Source: an uncultured archaeon (GTDB lineage Archaea; Asgardarchaeota; Thorarchaeia; Thorarchaeales; CAZPUN01). Taken from it: a stretch of DNA of 32,000 bases. Below the pieces are notes generated by a model, which worked only from the letters and a program-made list of their open reading frames with translations, searched no databases and was not told the DNA's origin. Positions 4,512 through 25,207 of this stretch are shown here, in pieces (the first letter of the stretch is position 1; every line of letters begins with the position of its first letter). The translations under genes and the position numbers were made by a program. The DNA lies in the NCBI GenBank assembly GCA_964589775.1, contig CAZPUN010000056.1, positions 17,533-49,532 of the forward strand. Direction: 5' to 3'.

Positions 4512-7500
4512 TTAATTGAATAGATCTGATGTGGATACATTGAAGATTTCATCTGATTTTATATCTTTAGTAATGTTATTAGATTCAATACGAATCATAT
4601 TAAGTATTTGATTAATACCCTTATTTTTCAATGAAGATTCATCACGTTTTTCTAATAGAATCTTACGAATTGCATTTTTTACTTCTTCATCAGAAAAAAT
4701 TTCTCGGGCTATTTTCATATTTTTAGATAAATCAAATAATAACATAATAATATTATTGAAAGAGTTTTCTTTTAATATTATTCTAATTGCATTTTTTACT
4801 TCTTCATCATAAAAAATTTCGTATGCTAAGTTTTCATCAATATAACATAAATTAAAATATATTGTGCCAATTATCATTGCTTCTTTCTCAGATTTCAGTA
4901 CAGACTTTATTTCGGATTTATTATTCTCAATAATCTTTCTTGCAAATTCGTTATCGATTTCACTCAAAATAGATAGTAATTTTCCTATAATTTCGCCATT
5001 TTTCTCATTTATTATAAGTTTAATATGATCTATAATATCTCTATCTTGAAGAATTTTACGAGCTAATGTATTATCAATATAACTCAAAATGGATAAGAAA
5101 TTGATTAAAAATCGTTTCATATTTTCAGAGTCATTTAGTATATACTTCTTGCTCTTTTTATATATTTTAACTAATAAATTCTTATTTCTTGTATATACAA
5201 CAGCATTTAGTATATATATAATAGATTGAAACTCAACTTTCTCTAAGTTTAATTCAATACGCTCCATTATATTTTCCAAAATGTTAGGCATATTTTTACC
5301 TAAAATATAGATAGTCTCGCTTACATCATTAATGTTATTATTAGCAATTATATTACAAAGAAATTGAGTAAAACTTGCCAATTCAACTGATTTTCCATAT
5401 TGATGCGTCTTCGTAATAATTTCATTAAAATATGGAATATATTTTATACTTACTCTAGGATCATTATCTAAATAATTTTCTATAACAATTTTTACAAGTT
5501 CTTCTAAACTAAACAACGATTTTAAATCATTTATTCTATCAAAATATTCGGGTTCGGTACAATCAATTAGTCTAAGATAAGTCATGGCAATTTTTGGATG
5601 TGATATAGATATCAATCTTTCACTATTTCTTTTTTTATAAGATAAATTCAAATACCTCTCAGAAAATTCAGCATATTTTATTAAATTTTCAATGGGTTTT
5701 TCAAAGTCCATTATTTCGAAATCTTTGGATTTTAGCTGCTTTAATAAAAAGTCATATGTAATTGGAATTTTATATTGTGAAAAATATGAGACAACGGCAA
5801 TTGGTGCATAATATTCATACAACTTGTCATTGATATCCGGATCTATTTTTTCAAGATATTTTTGGATTGCAGTACATAGTGGAGCATCAAAAACTTTTGG
5901 ATCATTACTTCTAAGATAGTTATGAATATAAAAGCTCATTATTGTTAAATTATATTCTTTACTATCAATTTTATATTTAATTTTCAATTTTTTAAGAATT
6001 TTAGACAATATATCATAGTAATTTTGTTCTACATGTAATTCATATTTGTTGAGTACTGATTTATCTAAAGATCCCTTTTTTTGCCCATAGGTTGATCCAT
6101 CTAAGCGATTATTCACTAGTCTATTATTTAACTTTTCAAAATAACTTAAACTCTCCTTGCGCAATAAATAAATGCTGTAAATCAATTTATTTGATATAAC
6201 ATTTTTAATAAAATCATCAATTTTTTCAATTGGAATTAATTGAATGTCATCAATAAAAATGACAAATTCAAAATATTTCCATTTTAAGATTTGGGTTATT
6301 TTCATAAATTCATCAAATTTAGATCTTATATCCGATGCACGGTATAGAAATACAGGAATACCCTCTAGCCATTTTTCAAACACTAATTTCAGTGCAAGAG
6401 TTGTTTTTCCACTTCCAGACTCTCCTATGATAAATAACGGTTTGTGTTCATTGATTTTATTTTTTACATTAGGATAGTCATACGAATCTACTACATAACC
6501 ATCGGCAAAATCTACAGGTGTTGGAAATACTCTCATAATCTTTGATTCAAGTTCTAATGCCCAAGTTTGCTCATTTAGAGGATATCGAGGCAACATGTAT
6601 TTTAGTAAATCATTTTCAAGATATTTTGTTAATATTTCAAAAGACTTTTCTATAAAAATTTCATAATTTGCAATAATTGATACAGTCATTTCATATTCAT
6701 TGGAATATACCTCTTTTAAACGTTTAATTCTATTGAGGTAAAAGCTCACAAAATATGGATTCTTCAACAGTCCCAAATTTGAACCAATTTTATATTCTTT
6801 TAGCAAACGATTTTTGAATTCATTATCTTGGTTTTCAATAAAGGAATATAAATCCTTAGTGTTATTATCAATAAAATCAAACATAACTATGAATGGCACA
6901 AAATTCTTTTTGATCTCATTTGGACCCTCACGGGATATCACAATTAATTTTATTTTCCCATCTTTGGCAAAATCTATTAGCTTTCCAAAACCCCAAAGGG
7001 AATACAACTTTAAATATGATAGATTCTTAGCATCTAGAAATACCACTGCATCCTTTATTTCGTCTATATTATAAATTGTCTGTTCATTCTCTTTATTATA
7101 TATTTCAATGAATTTGTCTGTTGGATTCGTTACTTTTTCAAAATCGTCAGGTTCAAAAAAGAAATAGACCTTTTGGGGATACTTTTTATGAACCTCTTTC
7201 AGTTCATCATTAAATTTATCAGAATTTTTCAGAACGAGAAATGCTTTGAAGGCTGCAAAAGACTTTCCAGAGAGCGGTGGGCCAGACATCCATATAAAAT
7301 TATATCGTTTAATAAGATCAATCAAGTTCGCAACATTATCATTTTCAATCAGTTCTTCCTGAGATGGAAATCTAATATGATTACTATAATATTTAATTAA
7401 TTCTTGCTTAGTTTTTATTCTAAGAACATCTGAAACTTCACTTATATTTGTATTTATTTTCGAGATATTTCGGTTAATATCCTCAATTTGCTCTTTGACT

Positions 7501-7958
7501 TCATTTAGGCTTTTATTCAGATTACTAAATACAACATCAATTTCAAATTTGATGGCCCTAATTTCCTTCGACTCCGATTTAGAAACAACTTCAGAAATGA
7601 TTTCCTTTATTGTCGATTGAAATTCTCCACTTTTGAAATATTCTGCAAATGATTTTTCATGAAATATTACATCATAAATTTTATCGGATATTATTGTTGA
7701 ACCTACATTATTAGAGAACCATTCTACAATATTATCAACGTAACGTAGAGGGTCATCAGATTTAGAAAGTTTCTTTATTGATTCTAGGATAGAGTCTGGA
7801 ATAATGTATGTGAAGAATGGTAAGCTTGTAGGATTCATCAAAATAAAGCCAACAGCAATAAGTCCTTTTATTATTTTTTTACCTTCTGATTTTATAGTTT
7901 TTATACTTTTAGAGAATATGCCCTTAAAAATAGATTTTATTGATTTTAGATTCACCAT
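4512..7958 (-). CDS. Large tandem double P-loop (STAND-like) NTPase with C-terminal helical repeats, paralog A
   Basis: First domain: Walker A GPPLSGKS (~7260-7283), Walker B VVFLDAK, ISR sensor-like motif. Second domain: Walker A GESGSGKTT (~6399-6426), Walker B FVIFIDDIQ. N-terminal coiled coil and C-terminal ~39-aa repeats. GAGGG RBS upstream. Very AT-rich. Confidence 0.85.
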   Translation of the reverse strand: MVNLKSIKSIFKGIFSKSIKTIKSEGKKIIKGLIAVGFILMNPTSLPFFTYIIPDSILESIKKLSKSDDPLRYVDNIVEWFSNNVGSTIISDKIYDVIFHEKSFAEYFKSGEFQSTIKEIISEVVSKSESKEIRAIKFEIDVVFSNLNKSLNEVKEQIEDINRNISKINTNISEVSDVLRIKTKQELIKYYSNHIRFPSQEELIENDNVANLIDLIKRYNFIWMSGPPLSGKSFAAFKAFLVLKNSDKFNDELKEVHKKYPQKVYFFFEPDDFEKVTNPTDKFIEIYNKENEQTIYNIDEIKDAVVFLDAKNLSYLKLYSLWGFGKLIDFAKDGKIKLIVISREGPNEIKKNFVPFIVMFDFIDNNTKDLYSFIENQDNEFKNRLLKEYKIGSNLGLLKNPYFVSFYLNRIKRLKEVYSNEYEMTVSIIANYEIFIEKSFEILTKYLENDLLKYMLPRYPLNEQTWALELESKIMRVFPTPVDFADGYVVDSYDYPNVKNKINEHKPLFIIGESGSGKTTLALKLVFEKWLEGIPVFLYRASDIRSKFDEFMKITQILKWKYFEFVIFIDDIQLIPIEKIDDFIKNVISNKLIYSIYLLRKESLSYFEKLNNRLVNNRLDGSTYGQKKGSLDKSVLNKYELHVEQNYYDILSKILKKLKIKYKIDSKEYNLTIMSFYIHNYLRSNDPKVFDAPLCTAIQKYLEKIDPDINDKLYEYYAPIAVVSYFSQYKIPITYDFLLKQLKSKDFEIMDFEKPIENLIKYAEFSERYLNLSYKKRNSERLISISHPKIAMTYLRLIDCTEPEYFDRINDLKSLFSLEELVKIVIENYLDNDPRVSIKYIPYFNEIITKTHQYGKSVELASFTQFLCNIIANNNINDVSETIYILGKNMPNILENIMERIELNLEKVEFQSIIYILNAVVYTRNKNLLVKIYKKSKKYILNDSENMKRFLINFLSILSYIDNTLARKILQDRDIIDHIKLIINEKNGEIIGKLLSILSEIDNEFARKIIENNKSEIKSVLKSEKEAMIIGTIYFNLCYIDENLAYEIFYDEEVKNAIRIILKENSFNNIIMLLFDLSKNMKIAREIFSDEEVKNAIRKILLEKRDESSLKNKGINQILNMIRIESNNITKDIKSDEIFNVSTSDLFN
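4668..4820. repeat. Intragenic direct repeat of 36 nt (4668-4703 and 4785-4820, 35/36 identical, period 117 nt)
   Basis: aattgcattttttacttcttcatca(g/t)aaaaaatttc occurs twice and encodes EIF(Y/S)DEEVKNAI in consecutive helical repeats. Confidence 0.9.
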
Positions 7959-9317: not shown

Positions 9318-11225
9318 TTGAAAATAAAAGAAGAGGATGTTGAAAAGGTAATAAAACCGATTCCGCCTTCATTATTGCCCGGACCTATTGCGAAATTCAC
9401 TGTTTATGCAATTATTATTGATGGCAACCATGTCTATACCGGGTCATCTGCAGGCTCAATTAAAGTTTGGGAAAAGAATAGCTGGAGGCTAATTCGATCA
9501 ATATATGCCCATGAATCTGAAATTATTATTACACTCGCTTTAGACGATAAATATCTGTACTCTGCCGCTCTGGACGGCACTGTTAAGGTGTGGGATAAAA
9601 AAACACTCCAATTAATCTCAACGCTGAAACATTCTACAAGTGTATGGGCTGTGGCGGTGGATGATGAAAGTGTTTACGTTGGCACAGATGAAAATACTGT
9701 AACAGTCTGGAAAAAAGAAAGATGGATACATGCTACGAGCCTCTACGGTCTTCGCTTGGGAGCAAATTCAATTGCTCTTGATGATGACCACATTTACGCT
9801 GGATCCAACGATGGAAGCGTATTTGTGTGGGATAAAAAAGATGGAGAGATCGTTAAAATCTTAAAACATACAGATATTGTCAAGAAAGTCGTCGTAGACG
9901 AAAAATATGTTTATGCTTCTGCTATGAATGGTACCGTAATAATCTGGAAAAAAGATAAGTGGAAGAAGAAAGCTGTACTAGAAGCTCATAAGGGGTCTGT
10001 GGAAGCACTCGGAATTGATGAGAACTATATCTATACCGCGGGTAGTGATACTCAAGTAAAAGTCTGGAAAAAAGACAAATGGAAGGAAGTAGTAGCTCTA
10101 TCAGGACATACTGAACCAATCTATTCAATTGCAGTGGACGATAATTTTGTGTATTCAGGCTCGAGCGATAATTCTATTCGCATTTGGGAGAAAAACACAT
10201 GGAAGGAACTTGTCAGCGTAGAGGGGCATTCCCAACCAATTTACGATATCGCACTAGATGAATCATTCATTTATACGGGATCTTCGGACAAAACAATTAG
10301 AATTTGGGATAAATCCCATTTCAATCAACAAGCTATCCTGCAAGATGTAAATTGCATTTGTGCAATCGCAGTTGATTCTGATACGATTTATACTGGCTCA
10401 GAACATGGAAATATACGAATATGGAACAAAAAGGCACTAAGAAGCAAAGAGAACATCCAAGGACATATGGACGAAGTGATGGATGTCACAGTTGATGAGA
10501 AGTATATCTATTCGGCTTCCAAGGATACAACTATCAAAATTTGGGATAAAAGAACATTATCTGAAATTAAAATGATCAATGCCCACAAATATACCGTGAG
10601 AAAACTTGCTCTAGATGAGCATTACGTGTATTCCTGCTCTGATGATGGATTCGTTAAGGTATGGGAAAAAGAAACGTGGAACCAGATTTACGTAATGGAA
10701 CATAAAGATAAAGTAATCGACATTACAGAAGATGATGAATACATATATGTAGCATCAGAAGATAACATCTATGTATGGGAAAAAGGTTCATGGAAAATGA
10801 TCCATACCATAAAATGTTCAGGAAACGTCCGGGCTGTGCATATAGATGGTAAATTTCTTATTGCTATTGTTGATAACTACATCACTGCATGGAACAAAAA
10901 ATCAGGCGAGAACGTAATAAAAATTCCGTGTAAGTTTGGTTATCCATTAAATATCATAAGCGATGAGAAATACCTTTATGCAACAACTACACTAGGCAAC
11001 ATTAAAGCTATTCCGAAATGGATTCTTACGGGAAATCAATATGAACTTCAAGAGTTTCTAAAAGAACAAGCAGATATTTACAAGAATCTAAAATGTCGAA
11101 ACTATATTGATTCCTATTGGTACAAGTGGTATAGAACATTATGCGAATTCTTAAGAAAGGAGATTAAATGTGAAGAAATACAAAATTTGCTGCAGGAATG
11201 CCTTGAAAAAAGAATGTACGGATAA
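9318..11225 (+). CDS. WD40 repeat protein (~14 repeats, probable double beta-propeller) with short C-terminal helical domain
   Basis: Regular ~40-aa repeats of the form (G/A)H...V..h.hDD.YhYSGS.D..hKhW(D/E/K)K. TTG start preceded by GAGGT. Confidence 0.95.
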   Translation: MKIKEEDVEKVIKPIPPSLLPGPIAKFTVYAIIIDGNHVYTGSSAGSIKVWEKNSWRLIRSIYAHESEIIITLALDDKYLYSAALDGTVKVWDKKTLQLISTLKHSTSVWAVAVDDESVYVGTDENTVTVWKKERWIHATSLYGLRLGANSIALDDDHIYAGSNDGSVFVWDKKDGEIVKILKHTDIVKKVVVDEKYVYASAMNGTVIIWKKDKWKKKAVLEAHKGSVEALGIDENYIYTAGSDTQVKVWKKDKWKEVVALSGHTEPIYSIAVDDNFVYSGSSDNSIRIWEKNTWKELVSVEGHSQPIYDIALDESFIYTGSSDKTIRIWDKSHFNQQAILQDVNCICAIAVDSDTIYTGSEHGNIRIWNKKALRSKENIQGHMDEVMDVTVDEKYIYSASKDTTIKIWDKRTLSEIKMINAHKYTVRKLALDEHYVYSCSDDGFVKVWEKETWNQIYVMEHKDKVIDITEDDEYIYVASEDNIYVWEKGSWKMIHTIKCSGNVRAVHIDGKFLIAIVDNYITAWNKKSGENVIKIPCKFGYPLNIISDEKYLYATTTLGNIKAIPKWILTGNQYELQEFLKEQADIYKNLKCRNYIDSYWYKWYRTLCEFLRKEIKCEEIQNLLQECLEKRMYG

Positions 11226-11960
11226 TTAATTCATAGTTTTAGCATAATTTCTTAAGAATTCTTCAAATTCCTTAATAGGTCTGACTCTGGAAACGAATTG
11301 GTGAAAATCATCTTTAGTTCCATAATTTTTTATATACGATTTTACAAGATCACGATATTTTTTAGGGTCTGTGACAAAAGTGATATCAATAACGTGATGC
11401 AATATGTATCTATTTTTATCGCTTTTTAATTCACTATCTTTATCAGTAGTTATAAATATCACTATGAATTTTTGATTTTTTTTCGTTTTTTCTAATTCTC
11501 GTTTCCAAAATGCAGTTTCTGTTAATCTTTCGCGTAAGCTAGTTTTACAGGAAATAATTGCGTTTATGATTTGAGTCTTTTTATCAATAAGAAGTATATC
11601 TACATCTGGATAAATAATGTCCCAATTTTCAATAGCAATTTGATTTTTATATTTATTTAGATCAATATTAATTAATACATCAATTTTATTTTGTAATTGG
11701 TTTTTTATTATTATTTGCATAATATATTTAAACACTGCATATTCATACAAAGCCCCTTTGCAGGATTTCCACGCCTGATCTCTACTTCTTTCTTTGTCAT
11801 AATAGTTATTGAGCAGGGCTCTTAATTTATCTTCAGAAATAATATTAAAAGTCTCAATTGCCTTTAAGTAATCTCCATTATGTTCGCTTTCAACTATTTT
11901 ATCATAATGATTTTTCAGGAGCTCATAAATTATTCTTTTACATTTATGTCCTTGGGACAT
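11226..11960 (-). CDS. Type II restriction endonuclease, BsaWI-like (CCGG family, PD-(D/E)XK)
   Basis: PDVD...ISCKTSLRER signature of the CCGG-family enzymes, plus N-terminal QAWKSCKGALYE. Lies directly downstream of a DNA methyltransferase. Confidence 0.85.
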   Translation of the reverse strand: MSQGHKCKRIIYELLKNHYDKIVESEHNGDYLKAIETFNIISEDKLRALLNNYYDKERSRDQAWKSCKGALYEYAVFKYIMQIIIKNQLQNKIDVLINIDLNKYKNQIAIENWDIIYPDVDILLIDKKTQIINAIISCKTSLRERLTETAFWKRELEKTKKNQKFIVIFITTDKDSELKSDKNRYILHHVIDITFVTDPKKYRDLVKSYIKNYGTKDDFHQFVSRVRPIKEFEEFLRNYAKTMN

Positions 11961-11966
11961 TTTATA

Positions 11967-12794
11967 TCACTCATTCAATAGTTTTAATTGATAGATATTT
12001 CCTTCATTTATGATCCGATTCTTAGCAATTTCACAATATTTTTTATCGATTTCAACACCGATTCCTTTTCTATTTAACATAGCACATGCTACAAGCGTTG
12101 TACAGCTTCCAGCAAATGGATCAAGAATTGTATCACCGACAAAACTAAATAATTTAATACATCTTTTTGGAAGTTCTACGGGAAATGGTGCGGGATGCCC
12201 TACTCTTTTTTTGCTTTCACCAGAGAATGTCCAAACACCACGAGTCCATTCCATGAATTCATCTCGCGTGATATCTGAAACGCCATTATTTAATTTCTTC
12301 CATACTTCTTTGTAAAAAACGACAATAACTTCTACTGGTGCAATTACATACGGAGCTTTTGCACTGAGCCACGAACCCCACGCAGTTCTTCTTGAGATAT
12401 TACCTTCATTCCAAATAATTGTCGAGAAGTATTTCCAACCAACTTCCTTTGCAATTCTTACAACATCAGCGTAAACACTCTGAAATCCAGCTCCTTTTCG
12501 CCCTTTACTTTTGTCTAACGGTATATTTAAACAGAAGCGACCGTCCGGTTTCGCTAGCTCTAATGCTTTTGATAGCCATTTCTCAGTAAACTCGAGATAT
12601 TTTTCATATGGCAGGTCATCTTTAAACGAATTGTAATGTATATCTACATTATATGGTGGCGAGGTGATTATTAAATCTATAGAGTTTTTAGGTATCAAGT
12701 TCGTTGTTAGAAAATCATCATTTATGATAATGAGATTATCTTTCCAATTAAAATAAATACCATTATTTACTTCATTCATTTTAAGATCATCCAT
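11967..12794 (-). CDS. Beta-class N4-cytosine (N4/N6) DNA methyltransferase, cognate to the adjacent REase
   Basis: Motif IV TSPPY precedes motif I DPFAGSCTT, with HPAPFP between them. The IIWNEGNISRRTAWGSWLSAKAPY block recalls CCGG-type m4C MTases such as H. pylori HP0263 (recognised from memory). Confidence 0.93.
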   Translation of the reverse strand: MDDLKMNEVNNGIYFNWKDNLIIINDDFLTTNLIPKNSIDLIITSPPYNVDIHYNSFKDDLPYEKYLEFTEKWLSKALELAKPDGRFCLNIPLDKSKGRKGAGFQSVYADVVRIAKEVGWKYFSTIIWNEGNISRRTAWGSWLSAKAPYVIAPVEVIVVFYKEVWKKLNNGVSDITRDEFMEWTRGVWTFSGESKKRVGHPAPFPVELPKRCIKLFSFVGDTILDPFAGSCTTLVACAMLNRKGIGVEIDKKYCEIAKNRIINEGNIYQLKLLNE

Positions 12795-15312: not shown

Positions 15313-18300
15313 TCATGAAGATACGAATGCTGCAACCTCAGGATCAATCTCATGAATTTTTGATATTAGAATCGCAGTTTCCTTACTTTTTGGATTCTCT
15401 AAAATTTTTTGCCGCAGAATTTCCTTTATTTTTCGATTATTTATGAGTTTTCGAGTTAGATATGGATTATAAAATCTTGCAAATTCGTAAAGATAGATAA
15501 TTTCCGAGATATTCGAGTTCTTCAGAATAATAGAGAATTGGTTTAGCTTGTACTTTATGAATCGCGTATTGAAAACATAATTCAATCGAAAACCAATGAA
15601 TAATTCAATCAATGTATCAAGGGGCGTATTCCCATCGATCATCTTCAATATGAATTTAATTGTTTGACGATTAACGGCTATGAAATTTTTGGGAGCAGAT
15701 ATACTCGCAATATAAATAAAGTAAGATAATGCCGTAATTATATTCTTATTCGGATATTTATATCTAATAAATTTCAAAAAAAAGATATATGACCTAACAG
15801 CATTTAAGAAATATCTACTACGAAAATCAGTATTTGCCAAATGGACAAGATATTCATAGGATTTTGCAGGCTCGTTTATGATTTTTTCATAAATGAAATA
15901 ACAATAGTTAAATGAAAGTCTATCAATAATTTTCTTCAGCTTTTCTATATTCGGAATATCAAAATAGTTCAAACTATGAAGGTATGTCTCTGCAAGTTTG
16001 GATTCTTGTATTGTGAGATACTTCAAACCATTGCCTTTATCAATTAAGTGCAATTCATTCAATTTTACCAATTGCAATATGATGTTAGTAGCACTCTCAA
16101 ATCCGTTTGTTTCCAAGACATATTCCACATAGTCCCAAAGCACTGGAGTTTTACGTTTAGCAAATTCAGCAACTATGGCAAGCACAACAATTATTTCATT
16201 TACACTTTTAATATTTCCAGCATTCATAACTAGTTTTAAATGCTCATAGACAATTTTATGGGGCTCAAATTTGAATACCTCAGTATTTTGATTTTGCAAA
16301 TAATGTTCCAAGTAAATTTTTGCGAGACTGAGATTATTTGAAATTGATTTTGTAAATGAATCAATATACGCATCAGGAATTTCTAAATGTTCAATTAGAT
16401 GCTCTGCAATTTTATCTATACAAACTTCTTGCGATATTTCCACAATCTTACCAAGATCAATCGGATAGGATTCCCATGCTAGTTTCAATAACTTGAACGT
16501 TATAAAATATCGCTTTTGATTTTTAATCACGTACTTATACACATCCTGAAGAGCTTTCCAAGCCTTTTTTGTCATAGTTAGAATCGCATAATGATTTCCC
16601 TGTTTTATTGCCATAATGAGTCTAAACAGATCCATTGTAGGGATTAGATGAATATCGTCTACAAACAGAGATACACGTATCGATAACCAATTTGATAATT
16701 GCAAAAGCTCTACAATTTCTTTGACTTCTTCATGTTTATCTGATGGCTGATATATGAATGTAAAATTTCCTTGTGCCCATTTTTCAAGTATGAGCCTTGC
16801 TGCAAGTGTAGTTTTACCCGTTCCGGAATCACCTACTATGAACAATAAGTTATTTTGCTCAAATTCTCGCTGAAATTGAATATAGTCGTCGGTTTCAAAA
16901 ATTCTACCTTTTGCATAATCAATCGGAGTGGGAAACACTCTCAGGTATTCGGGTTCTGATTCGCTGAGCCATGTTTCATTGTTCGATTGAAAATTATCAA
17001 TTGATATTTTATTAATTATGGCTTTAACATTAGAGTGTTCAAACATGGTGCCAATAAATGGATTAGAACTCTTGAGAAACTTTCCATAGGCACTTAATAT
17101 AGAGAGTTCTTTGGATTTGAGATCATTTTGGATTATCGCTCGTACGCGATTTAAGTAATACTTTGTGAAAAAGCCATTTTTAAGAAGCCCGAAGAATTTC
17201 GCTAGTTCATATTGCTCCGAGAGCTTTTGCTTTTTGTATTCATCCTTAACCTTCTTAAGAAAGGTCTGAAACATAATCGAGCTGTATTCAATGTAATTGT
17301 TGTCCAAAAAGTATGTAATTGGGTATTCATGGTGCGCATCTGGATATTGTTGTGATAGAATAATTAGACGAATCTTTCCATCGTTCGCAAGCATTACCAA
17401 ATCTGCTAATTCACTATTTAAAATATCTTTTAATGTTAAATTCTTACCATCTATAAAAACAATCGCATTTTCTATTTCATTAATTTGTTCTATTTTATTG
17501 CTATTTAAGGAATTGTAGGTTATGATAAAATCATTTAATGGGTCCCATATTTTTGATGACGTATTTGGCTCCAAAAAGTAATAAACGTAGTTTTCAAAAG
17601 ATAGATAACCAGTCTTACGCATCATGTAAAATAATTGGACGCCTGTAAAAGTTTTACCGCAAAGAGGAGTACCATAGATCCAAACGAAATTTTGCTTTTC
17701 AACAAGATACATAATCTTACTAATATTATGAATTAAATTGGGACCCTTAATAGTATCATTTTCGATAATGAGATCTTCAGAGTCTGGAATACGCAGATGA
17801 GCAGACATATATTCATTGTTCTTAAGATATTCTTGAATCTTAGAATACTCGTACGTTTCCTTTAACACATTATGAATTTCGCATACATTCTTTTTTACAC
17901 GATTTATTGTCTTTATGACTTCTTTGATGGAACTATCCATTATTGATTCAAGATCATTTGATGTCAGTTTGCGATTTTCAAATATGTTTATCAAAATTTT
18001 CTTGATTTCGAACAAATCGCTATCAACAAGATTAGATATGTAGTCCATAGTGTTTATGGTAAGGTCTAATAGAATTATTTCAGTCCTGACATTACAACAC
18101 TGATTTTCTTCAATGGGGTCATCGCATTTACAATCTGAAAGAGCAGCAAGTGCAAATTCAAATTTGGAGGTAATAACGGATTCATGAACATCATTCAAAA
18201 ACAAGATTCCAAGACAAAGTGAGATTTTCGAGAAGTATTCAATTCTTTCATTTATAAACTCGAAATCAAAATTATTTAGCCATTCATTCACAAGGTTCCT

Positions 18301-18336
18301 AAAAGTACCGAGAGACACGGGGTCCTGCAAATTCAT
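15313..18336 (-). CDS. Large tandem double P-loop (STAND-like) NTPase, paralog B
   Basis: First domain: Walker A GTPLCGKT (~17650-17673), Walker B AIVFIDGK. Second domain: RVFPTPIDY leader, Walker A GDSGTGKTT (~16807-16833), Walker B LFVDDIH. Colinear with 4512..7958. GAGGT RBS upstream. Confidence 0.85.
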   Translation of the reverse strand: MNLQDPVSLGTFRNLVNEWLNNFDFEFINERIEYFSKISLCLGILFLNDVHESVITSKFEFALAALSDCKCDDPIEENQCCNVRTEIILLDLTINTMDYISNLVDSDLFEIKKILINIFENRKLTSNDLESIMDSSIKEVIKTINRVKKNVCEIHNVLKETYEYSKIQEYLKNNEYMSAHLRIPDSEDLIIENDTIKGPNLIHNISKIMYLVEKQNFVWIYGTPLCGKTFTGVQLFYMMRKTGYLSFENYVYYFLEPNTSSKIWDPLNDFIITYNSLNSNKIEQINEIENAIVFIDGKNLTLKDILNSELADLVMLANDGKIRLIILSQQYPDAHHEYPITYFLDNNYIEYSSIMFQTFLKKVKDEYKKQKLSEQYELAKFFGLLKNGFFTKYYLNRVRAIIQNDLKSKELSILSAYGKFLKSSNPFIGTMFEHSNVKAIINKISIDNFQSNNETWLSESEPEYLRVFPTPIDYAKGRIFETDDYIQFQREFEQNNLLFIVGDSGTGKTTLAARLILEKWAQGNFTFIYQPSDKHEEVKEIVELLQLSNWLSIRVSLFVDDIHLIPTMDLFRLIMAIKQGNHYAILTMTKKAWKALQDVYKYVIKNQKRYFITFKLLKLAWESYPIDLGKIVEISQEVCIDKIAEHLIEHLEIPDAYIDSFTKSISNNLSLAKIYLEHYLQNQNTEVFKFEPHKIVYEHLKLVMNAGNIKSVNEIIVVLAIVAEFAKRKTPVLWDYVEYVLETNGFESATNIILQLVKLNELHLIDKGNGLKYLTIQESKLAETYLHSLNYFDIPNIEKLKKIIDRLSFNYCYFIYEKIINEPAKSYEYLVHLANTDFRSRYFLNAVRSYIFFLKFIRYKYPNKNIITALSYFIYIASISAPKNFIAVNRQTIKFILKMIDGNTPLDTLIELFIGFRLNYVFNTRFIKYKLNQFSIILKNSNISEIIYLYEFARFYNPYLTRKLINNRKIKEILRQKILENPKSKETAILISKIHEIDPEVAAFVSS

Positions 18337-18544
18337 TGGAAGACCTCATAAATAGAAGTTTTGCCAAATCTAATTAGATTGTTTTTTAAGTTTTGTGCAT
18401 TTTGATTTAGTTTGATCGCATAATAATGAAAACAACACAATAATTCTTCAGAATTTTGATAATTTAGACTTTTGACATAAGTTTCGCCTGAACATGTATT
18501 AAATATGAAAAAATACATTAATCCGTTTGACAATTTTAATCAAT

Positions 18545-19666
18545 ATGAGAGAAGTTCCATTTATTTATTCTGACAATCTGTTGAAATATTTGCTCTCGCC
18601 TAGTCACCCTTTTAATCCGAAAAGGTGGAAAATTGTTTATCAAATGTACAAATTCACAACTGAGGCATATCCCGACCTGCCTACGAAGCTCGTAGAGCCA
18701 CGAATAGCAAAGCGAGAAGAAATCGAGCTTGTACATGATCCTGCCTATGTTTCATTCGTAGAAGAGAAAAGCCGCCAAGGATTTGGATTTCTAGATTATG
18801 GAGATACGCCTGTATCATTCACACTATATGAAGGCGCGAGATATTCATATGGAGGTTCGCTAACTGCAGTAGACCTCATCAAAGAAGGTGCATCAATAGT
18901 TGTATCAATTGGTGGAGGGCTACATCATGCTCGTAGAGACCGAGCGGCGGGATTTTGTGTCTTTAACGATGTTGCAGGAGCAGCAAAATACGCACAGAAA
19001 TTGGGATTCAAAAAAGTAGCAATTGTTGACATTGATGCGCATCATGGAGATGGTACTCAATATATATTAGGATCTGACCCGACTACACTAAAAATTTCGT
19101 TCCATGAAAGTGGTAGGTATCTATATCCAGGAACAGGGTTTCCAGACGAGATTGGCATTGGTGATGGAAAGGGCTTCACAATTAATTTTCCATATCTGCC
19201 ATCTGCAACTGATAGTGATTTTATTCTCGCATTTGATAAAATTGTTCCTACGGCATTGCGAGAGTTCAAGCCGGACTTGATATTAGTTCAGAGTGGAGTT
19301 GATTCACACAAAAGGGATCCACTAACCCATGTTCAGTTCTCAAATAATGTACATATCCATGCGGCTTCACAACTGATTGACCTTGCAAAAAATCTTTCAG
19401 GAGGACGAATCGCCTTCTTGGGCGGAGGCGGCTATAATTATGAAGTAGTTTCTCGAACGTGGGTTTATTTCCTTGCTCTGGCGTCAGATTTCGAGATGGA
19501 AAAAGTTCCGAAGGATTGGGCAGGATATATCAGCAATTTTGGATTCGTGGCGAATGAAACATATCGGGATAAACAACCTCAGCCGACCAAGATTGCGCGA
19601 GCACATATTGAAACATTAAAAGAGCTAAAGGAGAATGTCCCGCTCCTATCCGAAATGGAAATTTAA
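18545..19666 (+). CDS. acuC: Zn-dependent histone deacetylase family protein (AcuC / class I HDAC-like)
   Basis: HPFNPKR, GDTP, GGGLHHA, GFCVFND, DIDAHHGDG, YPGTG, GVDSHKRDPL and GGGGY. ATG 18545 preferred over TTG 18527. Confidence 0.93.
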   Translation: MREVPFIYSDNLLKYLLSPSHPFNPKRWKIVYQMYKFTTEAYPDLPTKLVEPRIAKREEIELVHDPAYVSFVEEKSRQGFGFLDYGDTPVSFTLYEGARYSYGGSLTAVDLIKEGASIVVSIGGGLHHARRDRAAGFCVFNDVAGAAKYAQKLGFKKVAIVDIDAHHGDGTQYILGSDPTTLKISFHESGRYLYPGTGFPDEIGIGDGKGFTINFPYLPSATDSDFILAFDKIVPTALREFKPDLILVQSGVDSHKRDPLTHVQFSNNVHIHAASQLIDLAKNLSGGRIAFLGGGGYNYEVVSRTWVYFLALASDFEMEKVPKDWAGYISNFGFVANETYRDKQPQPTKIARAHIETLKELKENVPLLSEMEI

Positions 19667-19702: not shown

Positions 19703-21013
19703 TTATATTCCGAGCATTATTGTAATAAACAAATATATACTCGATACGGTCATGTAGATAAAGCCCATTGCAACACCAGCTTTTGCCCATTCCTTAAATG
19801 TAATCGTGGCTCCAGCTCGTTTTGCCATGTTAAATGCGATTATGGTGCTAGGACTGCCAAAGTGAGTGAAGACTGCACCCAAATTCGCTGCAAGAATCAA
19901 TGCTCGCCAATATGAGAATGCTGAAAATCCAGTCTGAGCAATCAAATCTTCGATGACTGGAACCATCATTGTGGCAAGCGTTATATCATCTACGATGGAA
20001 GAAGTTATTCCCATGATCCAGAGGGTAGAAATGACTGAGAAGACTTCATTTCCACTGGCAAGTGAAACAAGAATATCCGCCAATATAGAGAGAGCTCCAA
20101 CATGTATCAATCCTTCGACCATTACGAATAGGCCCATGAAGAAGAATATACTCGCCCATTCTACCTTATGAAGCACATGTTCAGGGTCTACACCACTGAG
20201 TACAAGCATAAGAATTGCTCCGACAATGGACACTGCATCCAAATAAGGTATTGTCACAAATCCAATTATGATGAGTGTAAATAGAATCGTAGTGCGATAA
20301 AACAATGATTTATCGGTGACTACTGAGCTCTCATCAAAGAGCATAATCCGTTTTAGGTTCTCTTCCTTGATTTCACCAAGACTATTACGATATAAGAATG
20401 CCAGATAACCAGCGGTAATCGCAATCATAACGAAGCCGATAGGGGCAAACATTACAAAGTAATCTGAAAACGTGAGATTTGCAGCCTCTCCAACCAACAA
20501 GTTGGGAACAGCACTGACCAATAATGGAATTCCACCAGCTTTTGTAGCTACGGCTTCAGACACCAGAAACGGCACAGGGTCCAAATCAAGAGACCTGCAG
20601 GTGGTTAATGTCAAGACACCAATGATCAACAGAGCCGTAATATTCTCGAGTAGACTGGATAATACAGCAGTAAGCACCGTGAACATCATGAGCAATTTCA
20701 TTGGCGAACTCGCAAATGCCTTCACAGCTTTAATCGTAATATATTGGAATAGTCCCGAAGTTTTTACAACTTCTACAGTTATCATCATACCCAGTATAAC
20801 TGCAATAACGGATAGGTCGATCCACGGACTTGCCTCTCCTACACCTATAATTACGTCAAATGTCAGCCCATCAGTGATCGCAAGATACATGAACATCAAA
20901 GCAGCTCCTGAAAGAGCAGCCACAGTTTTATGAATTGTTTCAGTCGCTATGAGTATGATTGACATAGTAAATATTAATACCGTTATTATAACCTGTGCCG
21001 TCATTTTTATCAC
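19703..21013 (-). CDS. ArsB/NhaD (IT superfamily, P-protein/SLC13-like) transporter, copy 1
   Basis: Multi-TM protein with ILGMMITV...SGLFQY, LSSLLENIT, VEWASIFFFMGLFVMVEGL and ITFKEW. Confidence 0.88.
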   Translation of the reverse strand: MIKMTAQVIITVLIFTMSIILIATETIHKTVAALSGAALMFMYLAITDGLTFDVIIGVGEASPWIDLSVIAVILGMMITVEVVKTSGLFQYITIKAVKAFASSPMKLLMMFTVLTAVLSSLLENITALLIIGVLTLTTCRSLDLDPVPFLVSEAVATKAGGIPLLVSAVPNLLVGEAANLTFSDYFVMFAPIGFVMIAITAGYLAFLYRNSLGEIKEENLKRIMLFDESSVVTDKSLFYRTTILFTLIIIGFVTIPYLDAVSIVGAILMLVLSGVDPEHVLHKVEWASIFFFMGLFVMVEGLIHVGALSILADILVSLASGNEVFSVISTLWIMGITSSIVDDITLATMMVPVIEDLIAQTGFSAFSYWRALILAANLGAVFTHFGSPSTIIAFNMAKRAGATITFKEWAKAGVAMGFIYMTVSSIYLFITIMLGI

Positions 21014-21138
21014 GCCCCTTCGACCTTTTTTTTAATAATAGCCTAATTTCAACTGAGTAGAGTTCATATACTCGAAATATTGAACAAAATTATTGCTTCT
21101 TGCTTATAATAAGAAAATATATTAAAAAATATTATGAA

Positions 21139-22437
21139 TTAGCCAAGCATTATCAAAATAGCAACGTATATACTCGAAATTACAAGGTAAATTATACCCA
21201 TAGATATTCCCGCACGTGCCCATTCCTTGAATGAAATCGGAGTTCCTGCTCGCTCCGCCATACCGAATGCTACAATCGTACTCGGGCTGCCGAATGTGGT
21301 AAATACCGCACCAAGATTTGTACCAAGTATTAAAGCGGTCCAGAAGGGCATTGAGGAGAATCCTGTTTGTATGATCATATCATTAATTACAGGAACCATC
21401 ATAGTCGCAAGAGCAATGTCATTAATTATGGATGAGGTCACACCTACAATCCAAAGTGTTGAAATTACAGAAAGCATTTGGTTTCCTCTACCGATCATAA
21501 TCATTAATTCTGCGAGTAGTTCAAGAGCACCGGAATAGATCAATCCCTCAACCATTATAAACAAACCAATGAAGAAGAAAATACTATCCCATTCGATCTT
21601 TTTAAGGACATGCTCGGGTTCTGAACCACTTAAAATTATCATCATAATGGCACCGATTATCGCTACGGCGTCTAATTGCGGTATAGTTACAAAGCCAATG
21701 ATAATGACTACAAACAAAATGGATGTTCTATAGAACAATTTCTTATCTGCAACAACAGAACTTTCATCAAAGAGCATAATCCGTTTTAGATTCTCTTCCT
21801 TGATTTCGCCGAGCTTTCCTTTATAGATGAAACTCAGATATAATGCAGTTATGAAAATCATAAAGAAACCAATGGGTGCAAATTGAATAAAATATTCAGC
21901 AAACGTGAGATTTGCTGCCTTGCCCACAAGCAGGTTTGCTACTGCACTGACCAATAATGGAATACCGCCAGCCTTAGTAGCAATAGCTTCAGACACCAGA
22001 AACGGCACAGGGTTCAGGTCTAGTGAGCGGCATGTCGTTAGTGTAAGAACACCTATGATTAATAATGCAGTAATATTCTCAAGAAGACTAGATAAAATTG
22101 CGGTCAGCACCGTGAACATCATGAGCAATTTCATCGGCGAACTCGCAAATGCTTTCACAGCTTTAATCGTAATATATTGAAAGAGTCCGGATGTCTTAAC
22201 AACTTCTACGGTAATCATCATTCCAAGGATAACCGTGATAACAGACATATCGATCCATGGACTGCTTTCACCAACACCTAATATCTGTTCAAAAGAAATA
22301 CCCTCAGTCTGGGCGAGATATATAAACATTAAAGATGCTCCGCCTAGTGATGCGATGGTCTTATTAACTAGTTCGGTTGCTATTAGTAATATTGAGACTC
22401 CAAAGATCAATACGACAATTAATATTTCGGCGGACAT
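21139..22437 (-). CDS. ArsB/NhaD (IT superfamily) transporter, copy 2 (tandem paralog)
   Basis: Same motifs as copy 1 and colinear with it. Several near-identical DNA blocks at offset 1433. Confidence 0.88.
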   Translation of the reverse strand: MSAEILIVVLIFGVSILLIATELVNKTIASLGGASLMFIYLAQTEGISFEQILGVGESSPWIDMSVITVILGMMITVEVVKTSGLFQYITIKAVKAFASSPMKLLMMFTVLTAILSSLLENITALLIIGVLTLTTCRSLDLNPVPFLVSEAIATKAGGIPLLVSAVANLLVGKAANLTFAEYFIQFAPIGFFMIFITALYLSFIYKGKLGEIKEENLKRIMLFDESSVVADKKLFYRTSILFVVIIIGFVTIPQLDAVAIIGAIMMIILSGSEPEHVLKKIEWDSIFFFIGLFIMVEGLIYSGALELLAELMIMIGRGNQMLSVISTLWIVGVTSSIINDIALATMMVPVINDMIIQTGFSSMPFWTALILGTNLGAVFTTFGSPSTIVAFGMAERAGTPISFKEWARAGISMGIIYLVISSIYVAILIMLG

Positions 22438-22629
22438 CTTGATTCATCAACTCTTATCAATTCAATACACATTTTTATTTATCAATTTATTTATTTTAAT
22501 ACTATATTTTCAAAACGGACATAAAACCATATTGGTTAATTTTTAGTTCTTAAATCTTTATCATTTATAAGGAAATAAAACATATTTCCAAATAGAATAT
22601 TTCAAAATTTAAACGAATGGTGATTATTA

Positions 22630-23298
22630 TTGACACTAAGTACATGTCTGGTCGATTTGCATGGTACGCTTGTATATTTGAAGAATCCAATAGATTACCT
22701 TGCAATTTCCGACCATCTATTAAAAAATGGTTATGAAGTTTATCCGCAAGAGCTTGAGGCTGCGCTTAATTTTGTCAAAATTATAGATTATCCAAGATTG
22801 GACCTTAAAGATTGGACAAGCTATCTACGTAAAGCATTATGGAGATTAAATGTAATAATTGATGATGAAACACTAAACGATATCGTAGAGAAAATCAAAC
22901 CGGAATTTGAGCTGTATGATGATGCAGCAGAATTTCTTAAAAAAATTAAAGATGCCGAATTCAAAATCGGCGTCGTGACAACTATTGCAGAATTTAGATT
23001 CACAGACACGATTTCACCTGTTAAAGAATTCATCGATGGCGTTTTTACTGGAAGTTCGTGCAAATGTGACAAATCAAATCCGAAATTGTATTTACATGCA
23101 TTAAAAGAATTAGGTTCAAAACCAGAACAAGCCGTGATAATCGGAGATGAACCACTCGTAGATATTTATATACCTCATCGACTTGGATTGAAAACCGTTC
23201 TCTTAAATAGAAATGGAGACCTCCCTGAGATCCGAGAGGCTGACGGCATCGTACGCGACTTAAGAGAAGGCGCAGAACTAATAATAAAAATAAGATAG
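22630..23298 (+). CDS. HAD-superfamily hydrolase
   Basis: Motif I variant DLHGTL, motif II VVTT, motif III K in DKSNPKLY, motif IV IGDEPLVD. GGTGA RBS before TTG. Confidence 0.88.
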   Translation: MTLSTCLVDLHGTLVYLKNPIDYLAISDHLLKNGYEVYPQELEAALNFVKIIDYPRLDLKDWTSYLRKALWRLNVIIDDETLNDIVEKIKPEFELYDDAAEFLKKIKDAEFKIGVVTTIAEFRFTDTISPVKEFIDGVFTGSSCKCDKSNPKLYLHALKELGSKPEQAVIIGDEPLVDIYIPHRLGLKTVLLNRNGDLPEIREADGIVRDLREGAELIIKIR

Positions 23299-23311
23299 AA
23301 GAGAGGATTAT

Positions 23312-23935
23312 CTATTCTTCTGTCAAAATCACTCTAGCAGGAGCTCCATCTCCGTTTCGGATTTTTAGCGGTAAGCCAATAAATGAATATATGCCTTCGC
23401 CCACGCTTTCTAAATCGAGTACTTCGAAAATAGGAATTCCTGCAGAAAGCAAGATCTTATGAACCGTGAGATCGCCATCGTAAGGCTCAATCGAAAGCCC
23501 ATCAATTCCTACTGCTTTGATGCCACATTTGACTAAATATTCTGCGGCTTCCTTTGTAAGTGCAATATACTCCTTTCTGAAAATTCCAGACTTTAGATAA
23601 TTTATTTCGCCCGTCTTTAATAGGATAATTTCATCTTGAGCTGGACTGTACTTTTCTAGGTCCGCCTTGGTGATATGAGTCGATTTTTCAAATTTGAGAA
23701 CGCGAGCCCGTCCGATTAATCGTTCTAAAGGAACACCCGTAACGTCTGTACCGTTCAGCAAAACATGTTTTGGAGCATCCATGTGAGTCGAAGTGTGTGT
23801 GGTTATTCTTAATCGCAATAGTGAGTAGGAATCCTTTTCAATTGTACGATATTGCTCAAATTCAGGACGTGGATCTCCAGGATAAACGAGTGTATCCTCA
23901 GAAAGTTCAACGGAAATGTCTATTATGGATTTCAT
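23312..23935 (-). CDS. Cyclase family protein / kynurenine formamidase-like
   Basis: YPGDP, HTSTHMDAPKH, VGIDGLSIE, HKILL and LPLKI..GDGAPARV. Confidence 0.92.
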   Translation of the reverse strand: MKSIIDISVELSEDTLVYPGDPRPEFEQYRTIEKDSYSLLRLRITTHTSTHMDAPKHVLLNGTDVTGVPLERLIGRARVLKFEKSTHITKADLEKYSPAQDEIILLKTGEINYLKSGIFRKEYIALTKEAAEYLVKCGIKAVGIDGLSIEPYDGDLTVHKILLSAGIPIFEVLDLESVGEGIYSFIGLPLKIRNGDGAPARVILTEE

Positions 23936-24112
23936 ATGTAGAGTATATTTCTGAAGATATATTAATGTTCATAAATGTATGAAAAATCATTTTCGGCATC
24001 TTAGCCATTTGAAAAATTAAAGCGCAATGTCATTTTTCAAAAGATTCCTCATATTATTTTTGTGTATTATCAATAATTCTTTTAAGCAAAATAACGTTGT
24101 TATATCCGACTG

Positions 24113-25207
24113 GTGATTCCTTTGAATCAACGAATTGTCCTACTGGCAAACAAAATCTACAACGAAAAATTATTGCTAATATTGACAATATTACTAGTGA
24201 TTACGTCTATGGCTCTACAGAGAATCCCCAACTATTCATATAATGATGCTCATGTCCTTTTTGTCCTGTTAGTTTTTCTCGTCATAATAAAGGGACTTGA
24301 GAAAAATGGATTCATATCGTTCATATCCACAAGATTCGAACACGGCGGCTATATCACATTAAAATTGATCATTCTTACAGCGATCCTATCAATGTTCATC
24401 ACAAATGATATCGCATTGCTCTCTATCGTGCCATTCACTCTGTCTTTAAATATCGATAATAAAATGGATGTCATAATAGTAGAAACTCTCGTGGCTAACG
24501 GGGCTTCCGCTCTAACACCATTTGGAAATCCACAAAACCTGTTCATATATTTCTATTACCATATTAACTTCTACGACTTTGTCATAACAATGTTCCCATT
24601 ATTGGTATTCACACTCAGCGTTGCAATTATCATGCTACGAAAATCCTTGAAACTAAAAGGCAAAGAACCAAAATATAAACCATATATTAAAGAAAAAAGA
24701 GAATCCGCCCTCTATGTTGCTTTCTTCATAATGTTCATACTCTCTGTCCTTGACCTCCTGCCATTATATATCGGAATAATTCCCCTTGCATATGCTCTTA
24801 TCTTCGATAGAGAAGCATTACACGTCGACTATGCACTCTTGCTTATCTTCATCGCATTTTTTGGCCTCACAGATAATATAATATTCGTTTTAGAAATAAA
24901 ACTCGAATCATCATTGCTCGTCTTCCTTGCTTCTGCTTTAACTAGTCAAGCAATTAGTAATGTACCCTCGGCACTCCTGTTCGTCGATTTCACAAACAAT
25001 TGGAAAGCACTCCTGTGGGGCGTGAGCGTTGGTGGCTTCGGAAACCTAATAGCGTCTCTCGCAAACCTGATCTCTTATCGCCTATATGTACGCAAATTAG
25101 ATAACCGTAGGGAATACTTGATAAAATTCCACAAAATAGGTTATACCGTACTTGTACTCGCAATATTGCTGTTCTACATTCTATTCTCCATTTTTCCAAT
25201 TTTCTAA
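24113..25207 (+). CDS. YbiR-like ArsB/NhaD/SLC13 anion permease
   Basis: SMFITNDIAL, ANGASALTPFGNPQNLFIY, VDYALL, SQAISNVP and GGFGNLIASLANLI. The true start may be TTG 24122, which follows a GGTGA RBS. Confidence 0.88.
   Translation: MIPLNQRIVLLANKIYNEKLLLILTILLVITSMALQRIPNYSYNDAHVLFVLLVFLVIIKGLEKNGFISFISTRFEHGGYITLKLIILTAILSMFITNDIALLSIVPFTLSLNIDNKMDVIIVETLVANGASALTPFGNPQNLFIYFYYHINFYDFVITMFPLLVFTLSVAIIMLRKSLKLKGKEPKYKPYIKEKRESALYVAFFIMFILSVLDLLPLYIGIIPLAYALIFDREALHVDYALLLIFIAFFGLTDNIIFVLEIKLESSLLVFLASALTSQAISNVPSALLFVDFTNNWKALLWGVSVGGFGNLIASLANLISYRLYVRKLDNRREYLIKFHKIGYTVLVLAILLFYILFSIFPIF

Follow-up and report, generated by a model that had tools for sequence, protein, structure and literature searches.

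Our analysis implies, with a probability that we put at about 0.6, that two paralogous genes of this Asgard-type archaeon, A and B, encode switch proteins of the NLR/Avs-like STAND kind, that B is the faster-evolving sister of A and that both are likely to serve in conflict or immunity. Switches of the STAND/NLR type occur in the immunity of bacteria, plants and animals alike, and no known prokaryotes are closer relatives of eukaryotes than the Asgard-type archaea. Both genes lie in the stretch of 32,000 nucleotides that was analysed as a whole (the window), and the features of B are listed together with gene A in Table 1. The paralogy of the two genes, their domain layout, their family membership, their rarity and the motif changes in B were observed directly.

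Table 1. Positions in the window of gene A, gene B and the parts of B
Feature	Position	Strand	Remarks
Gene A	4512..7958	-	paralog, 1148 aa
Gene B	15313..18336	-	intact ORF, 1007 aa, tandem-P-loop STAND NTPase
B leader	18337..18349	-	abuts ATG; SD-like GAGG at -11; 11-mer common with gene A leader, one mismatch
B N-terminal region, residues 1-130	17947..18336	-	predicted all-helical, low confidence
B Cys cluster C69, C71, C80, C81	18094..18132	-	B-specific; within insertion relative to A
B long helix/coiled-coil linker, residues 131-195	17752..17946	-	A-B alignment starts here; weak similarity, z 3.8
B D1, first P-loop domain, residues 196-345	17302..17751	-	best Pfam match nSTAND3, below cut-off
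B helical inter-domain region, residues 346-455	16972..17301	-	conserved between A and B
B D2, nSTAND3-type nucleotide-binding domain, residues 456-640	16417..16971	-
Codon T589 of B	16570..16572	-	strand tip, 28 residues past Walker B
B helical arm and predicted winged helix, residues 641-800	15937..16416	-	beta-hairpin 763-775
Codon E778 of B	16003..16005	-	at MHD-like histidine position
B C-terminal all-helical region, residues 801-1007	15316..15936	-	degenerate repeats; sensor position

Paralogy and uneven divergence

B is a genuine, strongly diverged paralog of A, with a core that is common to the two proteins and ends that are not. BLASTP aligns B131-793 with A145-807 at 27% identity (701 columns, E 3e-70), which bears out, over about 700 residues, the proposal of the earlier note that B is a second, diverged copy with a double P-loop core; every colinear block listed there is present in the BLASTP and the MAFFT alignments alike. 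Regional similarity, expressed as z scores of shuffle tests, is 37 for the D1 region, 38 for D2 and 11 for the helical arm, and falls to 2.6 in the C-terminal region, a marginal likeness that 3 of 300 shuffles equalled. The N-terminal regions, which had been described as impossible to align by eye over some 130 residues, indeed give z -0.03 (A1-144 against B1-130) and at most 1.3 under every alternative scoring scheme. Divergence is thus non-uniform along the pair.

The ends differ in composition and length as well. The cysteine cluster noticed in the N-terminus of B is real: four cysteines within 15 residues occurred in 23 of 20,000 shuffles of B, and the first cysteine of A does not come before residue 695. 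The region after the arm was correctly judged to be shorter in B, with 207 residues against 333 in A. The repeats of A are clear, about 39-40 aa each between roughly residues 944 and 1120; the periodicity of B is weak, though its last unit is similar to the ~39-aa repeat of A.

In a tree built on D2 and the arm, A and B group as sisters (support 100/99), the next branch (90/89) is the metagenomic relative P0006, and the end branch of B is longer than that of A (1.78 vs 0.98). B is therefore the faster-evolving sister of A and arose by duplication within this archaeal lineage. It could be argued that such a gene is a decaying duplicate under relaxed constraint and on its way to loss: its branch is the longer one, two usually conserved residues are gone, and a metagenome contig of 99.88% identity shows four differences, every one of which changes an amino acid of B and which cluster at B591-680. 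However, four non-synonymous changes out of four are not significant alone (about three quarters of random changes are non-synonymous by our own estimate), the 3-kb reading frame is unbroken in a gene of 31.5% GC, an SD-like leader stands at the usual distance, and B keeps intact its two Walker A motifs, the DD of Walker B and most of the motifs of the family. Thus we consider decay very unlikely.

The leader sequences quoted in the earlier note for A and B are present, and the resemblance itself needs a more modest reading, as the shared 11-mer is best understood as an SD-like GAGG with a few extra matches. With one degenerate position it occurs four times in the 2.16-Mb genome, against about 1.3 times expected by chance (own estimate), and its GAGG core sits where this genome usually places its Shine-Dalgarno-like GAGG, which is found before about 21% of the ORFs of at least 200 aa with a peak at -11 to -13. 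An 8-mer shared by A and B about 50-60 nt upstream was rejected as being at chance level for AT-rich DNA, again by estimate.

Domain architecture

Both proteins belong to the nSTAND3 family: PF20720 matches B with 54.5 bits and A with 33.3 bits, the cut-off being 27.2. This model is unspecific, since it has matches in all 14 control genomes; all ten of the nearest named ESM Atlas clusters carry nSTAND3 or nSTAND5. B has several of the features by which the STAND superfamily is recognised. These are a P-loop in which Walker A follows the pattern GxxxxGK[ST] and Walker B the pattern hhhhD[DE], a NOD that is completed in the predicted structure by a helical domain and a winged helix behind the nucleotide-binding domain, and a C-terminal repeat region together with a variable N-terminal region. 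D2 has its pre-P-loop motif at 466-477, and its Walker A (502-509, with lysine K508) and Walker B DD (560-561) are intact. D1 retains Walker A (222-229, with lysine K228) and a Walker B with a single aspartate (Asp 296) followed by glycine, and the tip of its sensor-1 strand is without arginine.

The best Pfam match of D1 taken alone is nSTAND3 in P0006, B and A alike (28.5, 22.7 and 15.9 bits), the match of P0006 spanning model positions 5-152 of 155. Because D1 as well as D2 is best matched by nSTAND3, the two domains seem to have come from the duplication of an nSTAND3 unit in tandem, a reading that leans mainly on these D1 matches; profile-profile similarity between D1 and D2 is confined to 30-38 columns around the P-loop.

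The structure of B was modelled by AF2 from a 12-row alignment (mean pLDDT 62, with values of 70-88 in the greater part of D1, D2 and the arm); a single-sequence model with pLDDT 39 was set aside. Aligned by structure, the 12-row model is closest to Avs5, with a margin of only about 2 Z units over generic AAA+ chains, which score about 10, on a model of moderate confidence. Foldseek with the whole model placed SAMD9/SAMD9L on top (E 1.4e-8, about 900 columns), and the core profile, searched against the sequences of the PDB, gave matches at the level of the P-loop only. The PADLOC model mad8 (mads_8, PDLC04140) matches B with 33 bits (E 1.1e-8, model positions 23-129 of 314) and A with 15.7 bits, both matches being weak and limited to the P-loop region.

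The residues 1-130 of B occupy the position of a STAND effector. They resemble neither A nor P0006 to any detectable degree and match no Pfam family, and neither Pfam nor N-terminal scans recognised an effector domain in the N-terminus of A or B. SIR2 was absent from B in Pfam searches up to E 1 and in scans of the N-terminus; what precedes the NOD is a P-loop domain.

Rarity and relatives

When 1.84 billion representative proteins were searched exhaustively by profile, the double-P-loop layout turned up in A and B and otherwise in a single metagenome lineage, that of P0006 and its close relative P0012. In a survey of 400 genomes of the phylum the D2 profile was present in 25 and the double core in this genome only, and a scan of genome contigs with the core alignment gave no relatives beyond the source genome. 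The genome itself (96.75% complete) holds exactly two copies. The copy count proposed in the earlier note thus gives two copies and a patchy spread, and a single-copy, universally conserved family was not what emerged. The same note had likened the genes to a diversifying family of the NLR-repertoire type. Its variable ends are borne out by the N-termini of the relatives and by the repeats of P0006 and P0012; the repertoire is not, given two copies here and no double layout in any other of the 400 phylum genomes. A and B are two diverging members of a small family whose ends vary, and not an NLR repertoire.

The N-termini of A, B and P0006 show no recognisable relationship to one another. P0006 has strong C-terminal repeats and is about 94% identical to P0012 over the core; the main difference between the two is two extra C-terminal repeat units of ~40 aa, besides short indels elsewhere. 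Within the same order of archaea, nSTAND3-like proteins with a single NTPase (L009, L010, L013, L016, L034, L080-L085; P0007) share with A and B the pre-P-loop motif, Walker A and Walker B, and they carry the TT/SR arginine, the helical arm, the MHD-like histidine and variable N-termini as in the family. Some of those N-termini are Mrr-like or HNH-like, neither match reaching the Pfam cut-off; others are transmembrane or helical. Unlike A and B, these proteins have one Walker A only, and the double-P-loop proteins form a clade of their own.

Lost switch residues

The data on two alignment columns set B apart from its family. In the column of the sensor-1 TT/SR arginine 11 of 12 aligned members, including A (R600), have arginine, and B has T589. 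This is the position of R438 in PaAvs5-1 and R453 in EfAvs5. The former lies 28 residues past Walker B and its replacement by alanine abolishes defence; the latter is described as the TT/SR arginine, which reads the gamma-phosphate in ZAR1 and Apaf-1 (PMC11897194; 10.1101/2025.07.08.663546). The lysines K590 and K591 directly after T589 might be stand-ins for the absent arginine. The second column would, judged by its position after the wing hairpin, be that of the MHD histidine of the winged helix: it holds histidine in five of six informative members (A H787, P0006 and three single-NTPase relatives), and in B it holds E778. Both replacements, taken with the cysteine cluster in a new N-terminus, suggest that the nucleotide switch of B is probably tuned differently from that of A.

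Such asymmetry recalls the paired NLRs of plants, in which one partner often has degenerate motifs. It could be that A, with all canonical switch residues, is an executor, that B senses or restrains, and that the two form mixed oligomers. Only in B are both the TT/SR arginine and the MHD-like histidine replaced, and its branch is the longer one; this is compatible with such a division but is no evidence of binding. Both genes have been kept as intact ORFs on the same strand, 7.4 kb apart. However, they are neither adjacent nor head-to-head, five unrelated genes lie between them, and the adjacent, co-inherited arrangement of paired NLRs is absent here; the P0006 locus holds one copy within 20 kb, and no second genome with both copies appeared among the 400 phylum genomes or the 1.84 billion proteins. 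We therefore regard a sensor/helper relation as unlikely. Its fullest form, an archaeal counterpart of paired NLRs in which a motif-complete tandem-NBD executor A and a motif-degenerate partner B, with a Cys-cluster N-terminus and a repeat arm of its own, would make one mixed oligomeric switch with D1 gating assembly, we hold to be more doubtful still. If it were true, neither a division of labour of the sensor/helper type nor a tandem-NBD receptor would have been shown before outside eukaryotes, and the host would be an Asgard-type archaeon.

Proposed mechanism and comparison with known systems

As STAND switches A and B have the following layout. A lineage-specific region, predicted to be helical, stands where STAND proteins carry their effector. 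It is followed by D1, a cut-down nSTAND3-type P-loop domain in which the lysine of Walker A and a single aspartate of Walker B remain and a second acidic residue is missing, and then by a helical linker, a complete predicted nSTAND3 NOD (D2, helical domain, winged helix) and, at the C-terminus, an array of helical repeats. If the analogy to Avs5, Apaf-1 and plant NLRs holds, the repeat arm would keep the protein closed and bind a trigger, ATP binding at D2 would then lead to oligomerisation, and oligomerisation would gather the N-terminal regions for action. The existence of a trigger, an activity of the effector, a role for D1 and a function in defence are all inferred. For D1 itself, nucleotide binding without turnover is probable, and the domain may be a regulatory or assembly module at the place where Avs5 and SAMD9/9L have a Sir2-like domain. 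SAMD9L is reported to bind nucleotide, with turnover below detection (10.64898/2026.02.01.703102).

The Avs5 proteins of AVAST type 5 (PaAvs5-1, EfAvs5; PDB 9nc9, 9jap; PMC11897194; 10.1101/2025.07.08.663546) are the best structural matches to D2. Like B they have an nSTAND3-type NOD, and like A and B they have an alpha/beta domain directly N-terminal of it and a C-terminal sensor arm of helical repeats. In A and the relatives, but not in B, the TT/SR arginine is at the same distance from Walker B as in Avs5; B is without the arginine that is essential in PaAvs5-1. The N-terminal SIR2 NADase effector of Avs5 is missing, a second P-loop domain being in its place, and unlike Avs5 both A and B have an extra helical N-terminus of ~130-200 residues. 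The host is moreover an archaeon, and for A and B an antiviral activity is a prediction.

SAMD9/SAMD9L (PDB 9zjs, 9zjr; 10.64898/2026.02.01.703102) is the top whole-model match, with a TM-score of only about 0.2, and thus its domains are arranged differently from those of B. It also has SAM, AlbA and OB domains, which A and B have not, and its upstream domain is Sir2-like and not a P-loop.

Tandem NB-ARC plant NLRs (wheat WTN1, 10.1101/2024.08.30.610185) resemble A and B in having two nucleotide-binding domains in one STAND receptor. As NB-ARC and nSTAND3 are different NTPase families, the tandem layout is of independent origin. Paired sensor/helper NLRs are similar in that paralogous receptors show unequal motif conservation, an analogy drawn from the literature only; the plant pairs are usually adjacent, unlike A and B. 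The papers that we consulted give no description of a tandem nSTAND3 layout in prokaryotes, and the closest published parallel found was the tandem NB-ARC of the wheat NLR.

The pair is a natural experiment in which a common core comes once with all nucleotide-sensing residues and once without two of them and with a different head and tail. Comparison of A and B could reveal the function of the additional ATPase domain, and also to what extent a STAND switch can do without its TT/SR arginine and MHD-like histidine. Until some activity is demonstrated, the practical value is modest.

Genomic context and likely role

The role of A and B is most likely conflict or immunity directed against viruses or mobile elements. 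We draw this from the patchy spread of the family, from the nuclease-like or transmembrane N-termini of the relatives, from the low GC of A (26.1%, 0.7th percentile of genome ORFs) and B (12th percentile), from the CHAT/C25 protease gene that adjoins P0006, from the change in repeat number between P0006 and P0012, and from a type II restriction-modification pair that lies between A and B. Against it we count the lack of a recognised effector, the weak mad8 match, the mostly ordinary metabolic genes in the neighbourhood, the small Avs5 margin, the moderate confidence of the model, the unspecific PF20720 and the restriction of D1-D2 similarity to the P-loop.

Some of these points would fit a non-immune switch, with A and B as regulatory or scaffolding ATPases in a cell process and with variable ends for different partners. 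The unrecognised effector and the chiefly metabolic neighbours agree with it, as do the absence of direct or inverted repeats flanking A or B, of an integrase around either gene and of a tRNA gene in the window, and a published survey of prokaryotic STANDs found defence and non-defence clades interspersed. However, extreme rarity with a patchy spread, atypical GC, nuclease-like or membrane N-termini in the relatives and a repeat number that differs between near-identical relatives are traits of accessory conflict genes and not of core regulators. Such a cellular role is therefore improbable in our view, and a conflict or immunity function is preferred.

Gene B is monocistronic, with a GHL10-like gene convergent to it and an HDAC gene divergent from it. 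The M29 peptidase gene of the window is conserved in 24 of 25 genomes of the same order; six of these M29 loci were fetched, and apart from one CitMHS no other gene of the window was found alongside. Gene order is not conserved across such a distance, this genome being the only one in its family.

Two further observations concern the placement of this genome, of which the first was of no help and the second supports the Asgard assignment. The LysRS gene of the window has its best matches in DPANN archaea and bacteria. A profilin match at the Pfam cut-off is present in this genome and absent from all 14 control genomes.

Paralogy and Uneven Divergence of A and B

Our data indicate that B is a diverged paralog of A, the other double-P-loop gene of the window: residues 131-793 of B pair with residues 145-807 of A at 27% identity (BLASTP, E 3e-70), and every colinear block quoted in the earlier note is present in both the BLASTP and the MAFFT alignments. 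The divergence of the two proteins is far from uniform (shuffle z from -0.03 to 38). The regions of the first and second P-loop domains (D1 and D2) reach z 37 and z 38, the helical arm after D2 z 11 and the C-terminal region z 2.6, whereas similarity of the N-terminal ~130 residues was not detected (z -0.03 against shuffles, and at most z 1.3 with softer matrices, lower gap costs or global alignment). The notion that the ends differ while the core is conserved holds, and so do two features of the ends that had been pointed out by eye. The cysteine cluster at the N-terminus of B (C69, C71, C80 and C81) is non-random, being equalled by 23 of 20,000 shuffles, and a counterpart was not found in A; the region after the arm is shorter in B (207 residues) than in A (333 residues). 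The C-terminal part of A contains clear repeats of ~39-40 aa and that of B a weak periodicity.

Table. Coordinates of the features discussed
Feature	Position	Strand	Length	Remarks
A ORF	4512-7958	-	1148 aa	
WD40 protein gene	9318-11225		635 aa	between A and the restriction-modification pair
Type II restriction-modification pair	11226-12794			BsaWI-like endonuclease and N4/N6 methyltransferase; between A and B
B ORF	15313-18336	-	1007 aa	
D1 of B	B residues 196-345			Walker A with lysine; Walker B with one Asp, then Gly or Ala
CitMHS/ArsB-type transporter paralogs (three)	19703-25207	two -, one +		
Class II LysRS gene	26982-28535			

The tree of D2 and the arm groups A with B as sisters (support 100/99), and P0006, a 1287-aa protein encoded on a metagenome contig, branches next (90/89). 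This topology argues that the pair arose by duplication in this lineage, with B as the faster-changing copy (end branches of 1.78 for B and 0.98 for A). The leaders of the two genes are also alike, as had been claimed: the quoted sequences are correct and an 11-mer is common to both. It occurs four times in the genome, with ~1.3 occurrences expected by chance (our own estimate), and its GAGG core sits at the site of the Shine-Dalgarno-like GAGG of about one fifth of the genome's long ORFs. We read the 11-mer as a putative ribosome-binding site with a few extra matches, which the duplication may have left behind. Beyond the leader, the upstream DNA of A and B aligns no better than chance.

STAND Identity of the P-loop Domains

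D2 is matched by Pfam nSTAND3 (PF20720) with 54.5 bits in B and 33.3 bits in A at a cut-off of 27.2 bits, the model being of low specificity, with matches in 14 of 14 control genomes. NPHP3_N, nSTAND5, NACHT and NB-ARC match more weakly, and the closest named clusters of the ESM Atlas are bacterial nSTAND3 and nSTAND5 proteins. The structure of B was predicted from a 12-row alignment (mean pLDDT 62; 70-88 across the greater part of D1, D2 and the arm), and Foldseek ranked SAMD9 first, followed by tandem AAA+ motors and NLRs. Downstream of D2 the model contains a helical domain and then a helix/beta-hairpin/helix unit, a predicted domain order that is the NOD layout. The architecture of Avs5 antiviral proteins is SIR2, nSTAND3 and helical repeats (PMC11897194, 10.1101/2025.07.08.663546).

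When D1 is searched alone, nSTAND3 is the top Pfam match in A, B and P0006 alike, and the match of P0006 is above the cut-off (28.5 bits) and covers nearly the whole model (positions 5-152 of 155). Profile-profile comparison of D1 with D2 recovered only 30-38 columns about the P-loop, at ~90% probability. As judged from sequence, D1 most likely originated as a tandem copy of the nSTAND3 domain and has since degenerated. Walker B of D1 is followed by a third strand with a non-conserved tip residue, and the single acidic residue in Walker B suggests nucleotide binding rather than hydrolysis.

Putative Nucleotide-Sensing Positions of B

An arginine occupies the strand tip 28 residues past Walker B in 11 of 12 members of the family; in B the residue is Thr589, with two lysines after it. 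This site corresponds to R438 of PaAvs5-1, the replacement of which by alanine abolishes defence, and to R453 of EfAvs5, described as the TT/SR arginine, which in ZAR1 and Apaf-1 reads the gamma-phosphate (PMC11897194, 10.1101/2025.07.08.663546). Past the wing hairpin a histidine is present in five of the six informative members, including A (H787), and B has Glu778; by position, this column would be the counterpart of the MHD histidine in NB-ARC proteins. B retains the lysine of each Walker A and the DD of Walker B. Such retention, together with the replaced arginine and histidine, suggests that nucleotide binding is probably preserved in B but that the nucleotide is read differently.

B also varies between close copies. 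JGI metagenome contig Ga0256914_1022210 matches positions 16200-19575 at 99.88% identity. It differs at four positions only, each of them an amino-acid change in B (K591R, A595S, E677K and L680S), and the four span 268 bp (16298-16565, codons 591-680); codons 1-590, the intergenic spacer and the HDAC gene show no differences. K591R lies two residues past the missing TT/SR arginine. Clustering of this kind by chance is unlikely (~0.002 by our rough estimate), and four changes are too few to argue for selection.

Rarity, Relatives and Possible Role

We searched 1.84 billion representative proteins exhaustively with HMMER, using a profile of the A/B core; 10 hits reached E <=0.001, and of these only A, B and P0006 have both P-loops. 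Of 400 genomes of the phylum, 25 were hit, over D2 and the arm only, and the full core was matched in the source genome alone. Scans of genomes and metagenome contigs added two loci, one that matches part of B at 99.88% identity and a distant single-NTPase relative. The proposed NLR-like repertoire is therefore not borne out: the source genome (completeness 96.75%) carries two copies and no more, the others of the 400 genomes searched have none with the full core, and the family is very small.

The picture of a switch core that is conserved while its ends vary is true of the A/B pair and of the wider family. The long relatives have one Walker A apiece, and the single-NTPase relatives have in common the pre-P-loop motif, Walker A and B, the arginine at the tip of the next strand and the histidine past the wing hairpin. 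Their N-termini are Mrr-like or HNH-like (below the Pfam cut-off, with the expected residues seen by eye), carry one or two transmembrane helices, or are plain helical regions. One same-order genome (G015) encodes two such relatives with unlike N-termini, L083 (C79) and L085 (C174), one Mrr-like and the other HNH-like, both below the Pfam cut-off. P0006 and P0012, a second metagenome protein, are ~94% identical over the core; the main difference is two extra ~40-aa units in the C-terminal array, which is highly self-similar, and short indels occur elsewhere. Such a change in repeat number is of the kind seen in fast-evolving receptor arms. Theirs is the only other double-P-loop lineage found, and the gene (L037, 8001-11864) adjoins a CHAT/C25 protease gene and lies directly 3' of a wHTH-type gene.

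We consider a defence role the most likely one for A and B. They may act as a sensor and its helper, for which the asymmetry of their motifs is suggestive; however, the two genes do not form a linked pair, and we regard this arrangement as improbable.

Genomic Setting

B is monocistronic, flanked by a GHL10-like gene and the HDAC gene, and its GC content is 31.5% (12th percentile). The GC content of A is 26.1% (0.7th percentile), and its flanking M29 and M28 peptidase genes have ~42%, so that A looks like an insertion. Flanking repeats, tRNA and integrase were looked for at A and B and none were seen that would assign either gene to a mobile element, and in the same-order comparison of the A locus synteny was lost. 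In the restriction-modification pair, the endonuclease gene has 26.5% GC (0.8th percentile) and the methyltransferase gene 34.7%. The WD40 protein matches the PADLOC candidate-system model HEAT-ARM_XIII (E 2e-24), probably via its repeats alone. The three transporter paralogs lie close together, the two on the minus strand being adjacent. In a pattern-based genome scan, the top matches of the LysRS were DPANN archaea and bacteria at 47-54% identity, a result that may stem from the way the scan works or from transfer of the gene.
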